From: Eledone cirrhosa
Taxonomy: Eukaryota
Assembly: GCA_964016885.1 (NCBI GenBank)
Contig: OZ024740.1
Span: 310,496,001 to 310,560,000 of the forward strand
Direction of reading: 5' to 3'
DNA length: 64,000 nt
The notes under the pieces were generated by a model, which had not been told where the DNA came from, did not search any database, and saw nothing but the letters and a program-made list of their open reading frames with translations. The translations under genes and the position numbers were made by a program. How positions within the stretch are numbered: the stretch's first letter is position 1; each line of letters opens with the position of its first letter. Positions 716 through 55,481 of this stretch are shown one piece after another.

Positions 716-1098
716 TAAGTATGTACACGTACATACATATATGTATACATATATACATACATGCACATATATATATATGTACGTATGGATTCCCCGAACA
801 TTTATTATAATGCTCGGTATGTTTGTAAACAAACATCCCGTAATAAGCCGTAGTCTCTAGCAACCATCGTTGCTCGTTTGTTCAACACTGACAAAAGAAC
901 ACTGTACTAGTTTCAAGCTTATAATAAATGTTCGGTGAATCCATACGTACATATATATATATGTGTGCATGTATGAATATATATATACATACTACTATAC
1001 GTCCGTATACATATATGTATGTACGTGTACATACTTATATTTAACTAACAGCCGTACTAGGAGTGGGAAATGAAATTGTGTTTCATCTTTTCCGTTTA
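716..1098. mobile_element. Fold-back copy of HHR retroelement family A
   Basis: 716-810 is the reverse complement of 921-1040. Homologous to 12854-13372. The minus arm carries the HHR 3' half (AGCTT GAAAC TA GTA CAGTGT) at about 895-920. TA-flanked. Confidence 0.8.
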
Positions 1099-1179
1099 TA
1101 TATATCATATATATATTATATATATATATATATATATATATATATATATATATATATATATATATATATATATATATAT

Positions 1180-2018
1180 GATAATAAGGACGCTGCGGAG
1201 TTGCAAATGGGTTACATATGAAAAAAGTTTGTCCTTCATCAGTGGTCTTCCAACCACCATAGGCATTTCATCGCTTTAAAGACCATATACCTCCGGTTGG
1301 CGCGAGCAACGGCTAAAAGAAGTCGTTGGGACACGTAAATAAAAGGGACGCGAGGGTAAACAAACAAAATGGTGAAGCAACAGAAAGTGATGAAGAAAGA
1401 GACAAGTCCCAGGTTTCTATGAATTTAAATTCGGTGAAATCGTGAACGAGAGAATAAAGACCATCAAACCTGGTTGAAATGTGAGCAAGGAAGGAATTTC
1501 GCACAGGTCTAACGGGGGGAAGAAGGGGTCTGATCTGAGAATTCGGTAAACATAAGTTCTGTGAAATCGTAGACGAGAGAGAGAGAGAGAGAAAAAAAAT
1601 TCATACCAGCTTGGCCATGAGTGCGCGAGAAAAGAATTACACACAGGTCAAACGGGAAGAAAGAGGAGGAGGAGAGGTAGTGACAGAGAATGAGTGAGTG
1701 AAGGGTGAGGAAGAGGCTAACAGAGAGAGAGACTGCTAGAAAGAGTAAAGATACATAGAACGAAATAGACGGGTAGCAGCAGAGGAGAAAATATGTGTAA
1801 ATATGATAATAAGGACGCTGCGGAGTTGCAAATGGGTTACATATGAAAAAAGTTTGTCCTTCATCAGTGGTCTTCCAATCATCATAGGCATTTCATCGCT
1901 TTAAAGACCATATACCTCCGGTTGGTGCGAGCAACGGCTAAAAAAAGTCGTTGGGCCACGTAAATAAAGGGGATGCGAAGGTAAACAAACAAAATGGTGA
2001 AGCAACAGAAAGTGATGT
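1180..2018. mobile_element. TA-inserted element with about 215-bp direct repeats (625-bp period), pLTR/retrozyme-like
   Basis: GATAATAAGGACGCTGCGG...GAAAGTGATG at 1180 and 1805; (TA)n on both sides; CTGATGA on the minus strand in each repeat. Confidence 0.65.
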
Positions 2019-2225
2019 AGATATATATATATATATATATATATATATATATATATATATATATATATATATATATATATATATATAAATGTAATTTGAG
2101 TTTTTCAAATATCAATAAAAATATTCGATTCGTTTGCAATTATGCACACAGCTTCATTTAAGCCCTGTCAGTAGAATGAGGCCCTCGTTCTGGCTCTTGT
2201 GTTAAATATTATTAAATATTATTAT

Positions 2226-2420
2226 GGGCGGCGGATTGGCAGTATCGGTAGAGGGTCGGACGCCATGCTTTCCAGCATAGTTACGTCCCTTTACGATCTA
2301 AGTTCAAATCCCGCCGAGGTTGACTTTGCCTTTCATCCTTACGGGGTCGATAAAATAAAGTACCAGTAATGCACTGGGATAATTGCTGGCCTTGTGCCTA
2401 AAGTAGAAACAATTATTATT
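2226..2420 (+). mobile_element. tRNA-derived SINE (dominant family)
   Basis: A-box-like TGGCAGTATCGG, B-box GTTCAAATCCC, core GACTTTGCCTTTCATCCTTACGGGGTCGATAAAATAAAGTACCAG, (ATT)n tail; many copies in the window. Confidence 0.9.
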
Positions 2421-51675: not shown

Positions 51676-51929
51676 ATTACTAATAAAAATTAGGAGATCG
51701 ACAGCATCACTAGGGTGTCGGAAAAATGTATTGCGATATTCAGGTAGGGCTGTTCTCAGTTCAAGTCACACAGAAAAAAATCGCACTTGAAAATAATAAG
51801 ATATGTGAATATGATAAAATATGTGAATATCATAATCTTTGCCCTCCCCCAAATTGCTCGACCTGTATCAATGTTAAAAATTGGTTGAATTGGTGCAATC
51901 AGACGAAATACATTACCGCATTTGTTTAC

Positions 51930-52085
51930 GAATTTTCCGTTATGATTTCAAATACCAGCGAACTCAACTTTGTATTTCATCCTTCCGCCGAAAAAATAAG
52001 GAATGGTCTCGACTTAATCGATGACCCCATCTCTCAAACTGCTGGACTTGGGCAAATGGTAAACATAATTATTATCATTATTACT
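51930..52085 (+). mobile_element. Old diverged SINE
   Basis: TTCAAATACC...AACTTTGTATTTCATCCTT...TTGCTGG-like segment...ATT tail. Confidence 0.6.
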
Positions 52086-55000
52086 ATCACAATACCTGAG
52101 TTACAATGCTCTCTTTGCTGGATTACTTTGAGAGATACTTCTGAAACCTGGGCGAAATTTTCTGTGTCTGGTCATTCAAGTCATCTAGATGACAAAAGAG
52201 AATTTTACAGAATTACTTGTCCAAGAGCGAACAAGGAGTAAGCATACTTTTCCCTATCTCACAGAAATGAGGAAGGCAAGTCTGAAAATTCTCTTTGGGT
52301 GACCACGTTTCGATATTACAAGTGGCAGGGTCGCAGATAAAAGCAAGCAAAAGGTGTGAAGAAAAAAACAATCGCTCTCCATGAAACATTAAAATACACA
52401 GTCCTTTACACACGTAAGGGAGTGCTACTGGGAGGCTTAAAGTATATTCACGGATAAAGTCATTTCGGAAGAAGTTCAAACGAGGTTGTTGGTTTCGATT
52501 ATGCATATCCGGCGAAATTCACGAATTTAATAAATACTGCGAAACAATGCAAAAACGTTATGTAGACTATACTCGCAAGGAACGTACCGAAGCCAAAAAC
52601 ATTCAAAGTCTTTGGAATAAGAAAAACAATGGTTAATGACGGGAATTAGATTTATTAGGAGCCATACTTTAATTCAGATGAATATCCCTCATATGTGTAT
52701 GGATGAAATAGTAAATGATTTAGACATTTTTTTTAATGTAATTGTATCTTGTTTTAAAAATTGGTTGCTTTATTTTATGTAATATATATTGTGTTCTTTA
52801 AGTTACCACTATATACACCTTTTATCTCTTCCATTCCTGATTTTATATAACATTGTCGCGTTCAACTCAAATGTTTTCTACCCCTCTCCCAAATTGAAAA
52901 TGTATTTTTATGTACATCTGTATGTTTGTATGTACAAATGAATGTATCAGCAATTCTAAAGTATGTATTTTTAGAGCAATAGGTGGCCAAGTGTGTATAC
53001 AATATCAATTCATTTTATATACCTTCCAGTTCTGTTAAAGTCGTCTCTTCCTTTGCACAGGTTGCAGTGAATAAATTACTTATAAGACACAATGTTTAAT
53101 AGATTCAATTAAATACACAGTTCCTATCATATGTTTGCCCTCGTGACACTTAACAATTAATTTATTTCTATTGTTGGTTTAGATGATGTCATTGCAATTG
53201 TTACAAACTTAAATTAATGGAGAGGTGATAAGCGAAAAACTGCATTCTAAATCGAAGCAGTTTTAGATTTCTTACGCTAATATTGCTCCCAATTAACTAC
53301 GAAAATGTAAGAAATTTCGATCTTCTCTCAACTTGTCTAAGGCCATTAACAATCAAAAAGGTCTGAAACAAAAACAACCATCTCAACTTATGAAGATATT
53401 GATGCAAACATATTTCCTTTCCCACAATCTATACGCAATACACTTTGTCAACATGCTTATAACGGACCCTTCAACACCTATTTAAAACTGATACACAAAA
53501 GTTCACATGTTTCAGTTACGATTTATTCTTCTTTAATTATCTTGCTATTGACACCAACGCCACCTTACAAACGAGGTCCAAACCTAAGAATTGTGAGTTG
53601 TAACTAAGCTGTGTACCGTTTATATAGGAATTTTTGCTGGATGATTCTATAATACGTTTGGTACATTTCAATCCACTTTATGCTATAAATCTTTCCTTTG
53701 TCACATTTCGAACTACGATATCAACTGTATTATATGCAATGAAATAAATGATTGTTTTCTTTAGCCGAAACAATGTTTTGATGCCAAATATTTTAACAAA
53801 TATATTTGTATTGATCATTCCGCAAAAAAATAACAATTATTCACAAATGAATAAACAAATAAGTTTATTGTACTTATAGACATTTGCAAAATAACAAACA
53901 TTCAACCTTTATTTTTCAGAAATGTCGTAGTTAATTATGTTTTAATAATAGTCACGTTGTTGATTCAGATCTTGCTAGACGGCATGAAATATCGATACGA
54001 AATTTCTCAGCAGATTTAAATAGGTCAGGGAAACAATTATTTCATCGCTCCATTTGTAAATATAGCGTTCTTCCTAATAACTGAAGTCTTTAATTTATTT
54101 GTGATTACGTGAAGTGTGAAATCCTTCTGGATATCAACACGAATTTTATATATGAAAACATTTTGACTTAATGAATATTTCTTGTCATGTTTTCTTCAAC
54201 AGCACGATTATTCAAGGATTAGAGTTTAATTGCTAAGTAGAAAATCATTGCTGAAACTTATATTATTTATGGAATATTTTTCTCCCAGATACGGATTTTC
54301 AAATTACGAAAAATAAAAACTGAATTATACATATATTTTTGTTTTTTATTTGTACACCAATGGTGTTAATAACTTTTTATCTGTATATATTCAGTACAGA
54401 CTTAACCTGTACAGCGTAAATATATGCAGGGTGGGCCAGAATTCATTACTCATTTGATTATTTATAGATCTATTAACACAAAATGTTATAAAACAAGTTA
54501 AGGAATATAATACCATATACAGGCATAAGATCATGAACAAGATGGTAAGTACACGTACATATAAATTAAAACAATAAAATAGCAATAAAATAAGCATGTT
54601 AAGAAATATAACTAACAAGCGACTCATGAATTATTGTCTAACCTGTATATAAATTTGCAAATTCAACATTTAGACATGCACGTATGAAAGGCGTTACGAA
54701 TCTCCATGTAAGTAGAAAAATAATATATATTGTTAAACTTTTTTGTGGTACTCATCAGGGGATATGTACCCGGGAATGAATGTCTGCTTTAGAAAGTAGG
54801 GTGATACACCGGAACGACTGGGGACAGTATGTAAGGTAGCGATGCAACATATTTGAGAAACATGGGACGTGCATTTGGATTCTTATTCGAAAGCAGGTTC
54901 CACTATATACATGTCTCTACTCATACTCAAACATGAAAAGCATAGGAAGGCACAAACAGACAGGTATAAAAACCTAAACAAGCACACACACACACCCACG

Positions 55001-55276
55001 GAAAAATCACACATGAGAAACACAAAGACACATACACAGGCACAGACGCACACAGAGAAACGCCAGAGGGAGTAAATTAAATTATACCATTAGCTACAGA
55101 GAAAAACAAATAGCCATTCAGAAGATCACAGTATATGAGATGAAAGGATGAAAGAACAACTTTCACGAACTAACTGATGACTAATAATAAAGCCGAAGTT
55201 AAAAATCAAATAGTGCGGGTTTGAATGTTGGCAACATGACCATCCCGAAATATAATTAATATATATATATATATAT

Positions 55277-55481
55277 AACGATGGAAATGCGGTAAGGAAC
55301 CAGATAGACCATAACGCACCAAAGTACTCAATACTTAGGGTAGTAGAGTGGGTAATAGGAACAAGTATGACTCCGACGGCAGAGCTCAAGCCGTTTCGAC
55401 GGCTAATTCTGGACTCAATTATGTCCAGAATTAGCCGTCAAAACGGCTTGAGCTCTGCCGCCGGGGTCGTACTTGTTCCTA
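55277..55481. mobile_element. Fold-back mini-element of PLE family B (tail on the left)
   Basis: About 58-bp inverted arms around TCAATTAT; homologous to 37232-37425 and 10205-10345. Confidence 0.88.

Follow-up and report, generated by a model that had tools for sequence, protein, structure and literature searches.

Inverted pLTRs, a one-sided tail and, in vitro, two internal start sites with nicking of both strands are already known for Penelope-like elements, PLEs. How the inverted pLTRs and one-sided tails arise has been listed as a task still to be solved (PMC8557442), and the later steps were left open in the first in vitro PLE study (PMC11167929). In that study (Frangieh et al. 2024) the protein of PAc, the Anolis Poseidon PLE, nicked both DNA strands and extended them from two internal start points, between which the tail lies. 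The PLEs of the Hydra clade are 'generally' under 3 kb and have tails of 30–40 nt (Craig et al. 2021, PMC8557442). Animal non-LTR retrozymes, whose non-coding units occur in tandem and contain a type I hammerhead, are proposed in the available parts of two sources to be non-autonomous derivatives of PLEs (PMC7229834; bioRxiv 10.64898/2026.07.22.740005); these parts describe no inverted arms or fixed ends.

The window, that is, the whole 64,000-nucleotide stretch of the Eledone cirrhosa genome analysed here, contains insertions in (TA)n that consist of two arms placed head to head, of which one reaches to a short terminus (S) and the other to a long terminus (L). L is situated 59–121 nt 3' of S, the tails being 59–61 nt in family A, 81 nt in B, 64 nt in D, 88–90 nt in E and 107–121 nt in C. 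This layout, with TA/TAT at both termini, had been noticed in a sequence-only reading; the layout holds, but the distance range given there, 55–105 nt, has to be extended to about 120 nt. In family B, S is at +60 and L at +141, both in the 5' UTR upstream of the ATG (+232), hence priming would be internal.

The use of both strands, the two internal sites and the AT-rich target are features common with PAc, for which a dimer is predicted. However, the PAc start sites are in the ORF, not in the 5' UTR as in B, and the start site is the same for either strand and has no homology to the target, whereas TA/TAT is present here. Further, PAc was read per strand, without per-molecule pairing, and the inverted arms were not accounted for (PMC11167929). 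The Penelope elements of Adineta vaga resemble ours in that their pLTRs are head-to-head and inverted, one of the two carrying the tail, that the junctions are palindromic or overlap, and that the pLTR contains TATA/Inr. For them, an explanation by self-priming was put forward, with an antisense template (Arkhipova et al. 2013, PMC3846280), whereas the present data favour two primings on a capped sense RNA. The difference from the described Hydra-clade PLEs is in the longer tails, the B unit of 3.5 kb, and the near-obligate, counted pairing of ends; the difference from the described retrozymes is that the retrozyme-like families A, C and E obey the S/L rule. In the literature searched we found neither near-obligate S+L pairing nor twin priming as its explanation.

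In twin priming of L1, said to have been described by Ostertag and Kazazian in 2001, both target strands reportedly prime on one RNA, yielding a 5' inversion. It is reportedly occasional, with the first primer at the poly(A) end, an opportunistic second site, and arms that copy different segments. Here paired priming would be the default route, with two fixed sites inside the RNA and with overlapping arms. The process may work alike, but on account of the internal sites and the overlap L1-type twin priming proper is rejected.

Element families

Judged by their motifs and organization, B and D are autonomous PLEs of the Hydra-clade type. Of the EN+ PLE layout, tandem units, pLTR, inverted copy and tail are present in both, and insertion into (TA)n, a Hydra-clade feature, is present as well. 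The unit is 3.54 kb in B and about 2.5 kb in D. B has a single open ORF of 717 aa. Sequence searches of the ORFs against Pfam and PDB yielded no match; the AlphaFold model of the B protein (pLDDT 93) has TERT as the best Foldseek match (3du5, E 1.6e-8), so that on the predicted structure the reverse transcriptase is telomerase-like, as in EN+ PLEs. Residues 591–610 form an IYQ...YIG motif across two strands, and while the ORF itself has no direct Pfam match, its top homolog, P0001, passes Pfam GIY-YIG. The Hydra-clade motifs (RWK, DKT, a CxCX5C linker, CxxC and CxH, no CCHH) were read by eye. B has RWR, DKT, CNCPDRSIC and CNLC...CKH, with one Cys between two core motifs, and D has RWR, DKT and CSCRKPEAC; at the motif level both agree with the clade. 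The families had been called unrelated, which is correct at the DNA level but overstated for B and D, with their 36–48% amino-acid identity.

Families A, C and E, with units of 422, 656 and 555 nt, respectively, present in tandem, are by their predicted type I hammerheads retrozyme-like non-coding tandem units; they contain no real ORF that reaches 120 aa. They are likely mobilized by PLEs such as B and D. The pLTR of B also contains a predicted hammerhead, a U3-A8 core variant with a three-way junction fold, yet with z = -0.33, and in D a candidate with a CTGAGGA core and a 2-bp stem II was found by eye, though not by the scripted hammerhead search. Of 193 Rfam matches, 150 were listed; these included no hammerhead, and most matches were microsatellite-driven miRNA models. 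A search of public runs with one stretch of family B listed no RNA run.

Loci in the window

Each of the seven paired loci in the window combines an S end with an oppositely oriented L end, and every end motif listed in the sequence-only reading was recovered within 1–2 nt, adjoining (TA)n.

The A insertion at 716..1098 has the S arm at 716–920 (minus strand) and the L arm at 919–1098 (plus). Another A copy, 12853..13372 (plus), has more than one unit in direct orientation, passes through L at 13009 and ends at S at 13372; its minimal predicted hammerhead core is at about 13126, with the cut at about 13156. The 3' part of a B element (ORF end, 3' UTR and pLTR) at 9374..10345 (plus) ends at L, and on its opposite side are pieces of a different, B-related PLE at 8212..9291 (minus at 8431–8833, plus at 8887–9291), having 36–42% amino-acid identity to B by tblastn. 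Thus neither 13372 nor 10345, both cited earlier as family ends, has an opposite arm of its own family.

The C insertion, 29651..31247, is formed by the S arm at 29651–30325 (minus) and the L arm at 30326–31247 (plus), each of at least about one unit, with predicted hammerheads near 30359–30428 and 31004–31073. In the E insertion, 37499..38625, the L arm is at 37499–37745 (minus) and the S arm, longer than one unit, at 37742–38625 (plus). C and E had been considered single loci; their inner patterns match 3,726 and 1,863 places, respectively.

The S arm of the longer D insertion, 31283..33708 (minus), retains a broken ORF for an RT and putative endonuclease at about 33631–31751, and is paired with an L arm of tail sequence only at 33709..33762 (plus). 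The other D insertion, about 42332..42525, is a short hairpin plus tail, with S on the left and L on the right. Its end at 42525, for which a difference of about 14 nt from 33762 had been noted, is not a second site but the usual L end, from which 11 nt between CCA repeats have been lost. Two short B hairpins with tails are at 37232..37425 (S left, L right), where the arms start at the putative start site, and at 55277..55481 (L left, S right), where an extra G precedes the start site on the L arm.

Genome-wide pairing of the ends

A first genome search, with the whole B element as the query, was biased to element ends and is excluded from the counts. In the whole genome, pattern counts for B yield 10,818 S+L, 82 S+S and 79 L+L pairs, that is, S+L in 10,818 of 10,979 (98.5%), compared to 50% expected under independent choice of the ends. 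For D, the counts are 341, 1 and 11. The S+S or L+L share is hence about 1.5% in B and 3.4% in D, and upon inspection about four of twelve such exceptions look genuine, the others being interrupted or compound. Among B loci selected by inner patterns, 74 of 93 pairs are S+L, none are S+S or L+L, and 19 have an unclassified end. All four long B loci end at S and L, three of them with multi-unit arms. The interval from +1 to +232 of B contains 18 TA sites, two of which take 216 of 255 arm ends; given this concentration and the pairing counts, the S and L ends are not due to chance.

S+L pairs were observed at 17 of 27 sampled places for D, 12 of 27 for E, 9 of 26 for C and 4 of 18 for A, the remainder being mostly one-ended or broken. 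The prediction that the ends form two sharp peaks and that each locus pairs a short end with a long one is thus borne out genome-wide in B and D and by the sampled loci of C and E, whereas A is mostly decayed and retains four clean pairs. Many sampled loci of A, C and E show one end only, and some of these are unit-length direct copies starting just after S and ending at S, with no visible inverted arm. Overall, the S+L rule across families is confirmed as real and genome-wide. The common rule links A, C and E mechanistically to the autonomous PLEs.

Beyond the TA/TAT end, no common sequence or fold was seen around S and L across families. The flanks of the hairpins are pure TA, and therefore none of 81 hairpins was informative about target-site duplication. 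The TA tracts on the S and L sides do not differ in length (medians 23 and 26, p = 0.47).

Arms, junctions and the putative start site

Either arm may be the longer one. In 19 of 71 B pairs it is the S arm that extends further 5', and in 6 of 74 the L arm consists of tail sequence alone, as at the D locus 31283/33762. The junction centres differ in 19 of 20 cases, and the repeated one occurs on two haplotypes. The joining points had been described as variable and internal; the junctions are indeed nearly all unique, but in short B copies the joining points are not freely variable and gather at the putative start site. The 5' ends of B arms fall at -5..+10 in 115 of 148 cases, and +1 lies in an Inr-like motif 30 nt downstream of a TATA-like box, suggesting that short arms stop at a putative TATA/Inr start site.

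Genome-wide, in a count covering G and A, the base before +1 in B arms is G in 2,675 cases and A in 359, compared to eight genomic promoter copies with G at this position. Among the first 100 G rows, 34 could draw the G from the opposite arm (by eye), and 12 loci have the extra G on both arms, an indication of two cDNAs that each ran off the end of a capped sense RNA.

The two arms of a B insertion are on the same haplotype in 26 of 30 S+L pairs, compared to 10 expected, and the other four differ at one diagnostic site. Discordance in the S+S and L+L exceptions, about 5–6 of 49 in each class by eye, is not clearly higher. In one A array, the units of both arms are 0–3 substitutions apart, and 19–31 from other loci. 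The common haplotype could also arise if a single active locus supplied two RNAs, or if the arms underwent gene conversion.

Proposed mechanism and alternatives

The loci that fold-back cannot make, together with the cap-like G on both arms, support priming of both strands on sense RNA. We consider it probable that both nicked strands of (TA)n prime on one RNA, one at S and the other at L, with subsequent end-joining of the cDNAs. Of the programmed twin priming suggested earlier, the both-strand part is supported, but the single RNA molecule is favoured rather than proven. The protein with RT and putative GIY-YIG domains, probably in two copies, would bind the 5' UTR region holding S and L, and both strands of the TA run would be nicked, as in another PLE in vitro. 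Each 3'-TA end may then pair with UA/UAU, at S in one case and at L in the other, and both cDNAs would extend toward the 5' end of the RNA. The PAc start site, alike on both strands and unrelated to the target, speaks against this scheme (PMC11167929). On a capped linear RNA, run-off at +1 would produce a hairpin of roughly 195 nt plus a tail, with the extra G, whereas read-through or a ribozyme-made circular RNA might produce long, multi-unit arms. The L-primed cDNA would displace the S-primed one or stop early, and the cDNA ends would be joined via 0–6 nt of microhomology or short inserts, with the second strands filled in. The unit-length direct copies are accounted for solely by a vanishingly short L arm.

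An unlikely but credible alternative is that the strands prime at S and L on two RNAs, usually from the same active locus, held in an asymmetric complex. It covers all arm-length data without strand displacement, agrees with the four discordant pairs, and fits the window locus 8212–10345, where arms of two different PLEs are joined. However, near-strict S+L pairing then needs a separate cause, whereas one RNA with two sites yields it directly, and although several haplotypes are common, the arms match in 26 of 30 pairs.

A single priming event followed by self-priming or fold-back, as proposed on an antisense template (PMC3846280), with the tail from endonuclease resolution of the intermediate (PMC8557442), seems improbable and is already disfavoured. 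Many centres are short palindromes or overlaps and the arms are near-identical, as expected from fold-back. But fold-back of an L-primed cDNA can account neither for pairs in which the S arm is the longer one nor for tail-only L arms, an S-primed cDNA has no tail to copy, and the G on both arms at 12 loci points to two run-offs. Thus the data are evidence against the published self-priming model.

A MITE-like origin of the short copies, in which a few master hairpins that chanced to be S+L were copied in full, is very improbable. The narrow size class near 195 nt and the recurrence of some centres among 30 loci picked by whole-element similarity are in its favour; against it, nearly all centres differ and the repeated one is on two haplotypes, long and multi-unit loci and other families follow the same rule, and the present sample suggests that the hairpin centre sequence does not track subfamily. 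Finally, scatter of ends over TA-like sites by later deletion or microsatellite growth, or palindromes as assembly artefacts, could draw on the TA/TAT microhomology at both ends and the ragged older A copies, but has a negligible chance, being refuted by the B pairing counts and the two sites taking 216 of 255 ends, and public-run contigs, possibly from the assembly's own sample, have TA-joined loose ends exactly at S and L.

Returning to priming at S and L on one RNA, we tentatively suggest, at rather less than even confidence, that endonuclease-bearing PLEs and animal retrozymes may normally integrate in this way. One ribonucleoprotein would place its two RT active sites at two programmed positions within a single RNA, capped or circular, and write inward from both sides of a double-strand cut. 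If so, inverted pLTRs, the one-sided tail and multi-unit arrays would be explained in one step, and paired twin priming would join LINE-type priming and LTR integrases as a third chemistry of integration. The genome supplies a counted rule over about 11,000 B insertions, and the common insertion signature ties retrozyme-like repeats to the PLE machinery. B, a young family with an open ORF and mapped sites, is suited to a direct test. A sixth hammerhead family in the window, F (41914..42288), has an equal short/long layout.

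Arm ends in the window

Family B is the terminal part of an autonomous element with a head-to-tail unit of 3,543 bp and an ORF of 717 aa, whose predicted structure (pLDDT 93) has telomerase reverse transcriptase (RT) as its top fold match. Family D has a broken ORF with 36–48% identity to that of B; by motif comparison, both carry the Hydra-clade motifs of Penelope-like elements (PLEs) listed in section 11 of PMC8557442. The units of A, C and E, which are non-coding and occur in tandem, measure 422, 656 and 555 nt, respectively. A script picked up hammerheads in A, B, C and E, and one was recognised by eye in D; the one in B has the core variant U3-A8 (PMC4209133). 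At E 0.1, no DNA similarity was found among the five family units.

The window has 35% GC and abundant (TA)n runs (the host genome is 3.0 Gb). The sequence-only reading held that one arm of an insertion ends at a short terminus (S) and the opposite arm at a long one (L) further 3', in each family. Every arm end it cited was found, and all seven window loci with two same-family arms have one S and one L, facing outward; the two-termini rule is confirmed, and is stronger than had been claimed. The tail, that is, the stretch from S to L, is 59–61 nt long in A, 81 in B, 64 in D, 88–90 in E and 107–121 in C. The ends at 13372 and 10345 are present but lack a same-family partner arm, and the D end at 42525, listed as differing from another D end, is an ordinary L end that has lost 11 nt, not a separate terminus.

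The head-to-head locus at 8212–10345 has sides from different B-related PLEs, and could reflect a template switch, a nested insertion or a two-RNA event. An older B-like hairpin relic (38630–38750) lies directly past the S end of E. A sixth hammerhead family occupies 41914–42288, with S at 42288 and further copies at two fetched loci, L109 and L140; its long end lies 133 nt beyond S in two copies and 49 nt beyond it in one.

Genome-wide pairing

The inner 27-mer of family B has 24,224 matches in the genome. Hairpin patterns, which detect only arms spanning 85–115 nt with exact end motifs, take as L any arm running on beyond S and, where self-complementary, count each locus on both strands, yielded 10,818 S+L cases (5,369 + 5,449), 82 S+S and 79 L+L. 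The S+L share is 98.5%, with 50% expected under independent end choice. Among six S+S and six L+L exceptions inspected, about two of each seem genuine, the remaining ones being interrupted, compound or having another end. Loci fetched by inner patterns gave 255 arm ends. Of these, S accounts for 95 and L for 121; the other 39 lie elsewhere, and many of them belong to diverged copies in which the alignment stopped early. Pairs from these loci were S+L in 74 of 93 cases, never S+S or L+L, and had an unclassified end in 19. The region +1 to +232, counted from the putative start site, offers 18 TA sites. Both ends were seen in all four long B loci (up to about 20 kb), three of which have multi-unit arms. 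In contigs from four public runs, all of one study and possibly of the assembly's own sample, loose ends are TA-joined at exactly S and L.

For family D, the genome-wide counts were 341 S+L, one S+S and 11 L+L. The first 30 pattern matches per family were also merged into places and classified by reading: 17 of 27 places were S+L in D (two of them identical copies), 12 of 27 in E, 9 of 26 in C and 4 of 18 in A, and no clear S+S or L+L was seen among the sampled places of these families. At one A place (L180), a 7-nt stub could make the pair L+L, and at one C place the partner of L is an end within the tail. The others are one-ended, disrupted by insertions that came later, or direct copies of unit length that start just past S and finish at S. 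Such copies at L246, L242 and L260 (C) and at L270 and L282 (E) are TA-flanked, and no inverted arm is visible there.

Arm structure and start site

In family B, S (+60) and L (+141) lie within the 5' UTR, with the ribozyme cut upstream (+41) and the ATG downstream (+232); full units run through both ends. The arm junctions form afresh, being distinct in 19 of 20 cases. In 19 of 71 pairs the S arm extends over 5 nt further in the 5' direction than the L arm; in 15 it is the L arm that does so. Tail-only L arms occur in 6 of 74 B pairs and in the D locus at 31283–33762. Where the S arm is the longer one, or the L arm consists of the tail only, neither arm can have been copied from the other, which implies that both were RNA-primed. 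Among the 30 of 47 hairpins with sufficient overlap for scoring, a three-site haplotype is common to both arms in 26, with 10 expected. Within a single A array, units taken from the two arms are 0–3 substitutions apart, and they differ from two other loci by 19–31.

The 5' ends of B arms fall at −5 to +10 of an Inr-like motif with a TATA-like box 30 nt upstream (115 of 148). The base before +1 in hairpin arms is G in 2,675 cases and A in 359, while only eight genomic copies carrying promoter sequence have G there, and unselected promoter-bearing copies have T or C in 18 of 18. In the first 100 G rows, read by eye, the G could derive from the opposite arm in 34, and it is present on both arms in 12 loci. 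Some D arms likewise have it. In L1 work, such an extra G is known as a sign that the reverse transcriptase has copied through a cap; hence the template is probably a capped sense RNA. In B the putative start site falls within hammerhead loop II, so that a capped transcript would have an incomplete ribozyme at its 5' end.

Upstream of a family A hammerhead, a splice-donor-like GGTAAGT is seen at 13079–13090; introns are known in PLE 5' regions (PMC2377424).

A or T runs of up to about 18 nt, suggestive of untemplated tailing before joining, separate the arms of some B hairpins (including L039/L068 and L098). At L069, about 4885–5225, a flank motif of about 13 nt plus TA occurs inverted on either side of one B hairpin. 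Near 91.487–91.493 Mb of the same contig (L163/L164/L304), the inversion junction of a four-unit array is occupied by a 55-nt piece of the B ORF repeated 65 times in tandem, which may be due to telomerase-like reiterative copying by the RT, later expansion or assembly error.

A proposed model of insertion

An inverted-orientation arm must have been copied from a sense template. We consider it highly probable that there are two RNA primings, one at S and one at L, and rather likely that both occur on one RNA molecule; a single RNA carrying two priming sites would yield one S and one L end directly. Two RNA molecules from one locus are a possible alternative pair of templates. Self-priming on antisense, proposed in PMC3846280, is argued against by the extra G. 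A protein dimer is assumed, following the dimer prediction in PMC11167929. Multi-unit arms on both sides could stem from circular RNA made by the ribozyme or from read-through RNA, two templates that look the same in DNA.

The elements belong to kinds already described, and the inverted-arm structure is already known qualitatively. PMC8557442 describes the inverted copy and a tail that is frequently confined to one end, and names the mechanism as an open task; PMC11167929 describes nicking of both strands and two internal start sites, with no report, in the parts compared, of pairing of the sites. Neither the pairing rule nor the present model was found in the accessible parts of the literature on twin priming with Penelope or GIY-YIG and on related subjects, with PMC8969392, PMC7229834, PMC9977147, PMC3681739 and bioRxiv 10.64898/2026.07.22.740005 also compared; Arkhipova 2006, Evgen'ev and Arkhipova 2005 and Pyatkov 2002 may contain an earlier proposal. 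With S and L almost always paired, an extra G that suggests a cap, and retrozyme-like units following the same rule, the known structure becomes a specific, testable model for that open question.

Other repeats in the window

Broken ORFs of a further RT/GIY-YIG element, with motifs of a different PLE lineage, lie at 44248–46484 (+). Two other broken ORFs, at 26296–27410 (+) and 18619–19598 (+), had no match in a Pfam search; the former resembles a hAT-type transposase and the latter the C-terminal region of a non-LTR retrotransposon. A repeat of about 190 nt with a SINE-like appearance is abundant, occurring at 2207–2421 and about 12 other places, and a compound TA-rich minisatellite of about 3.5 kb spans 58300–61850.
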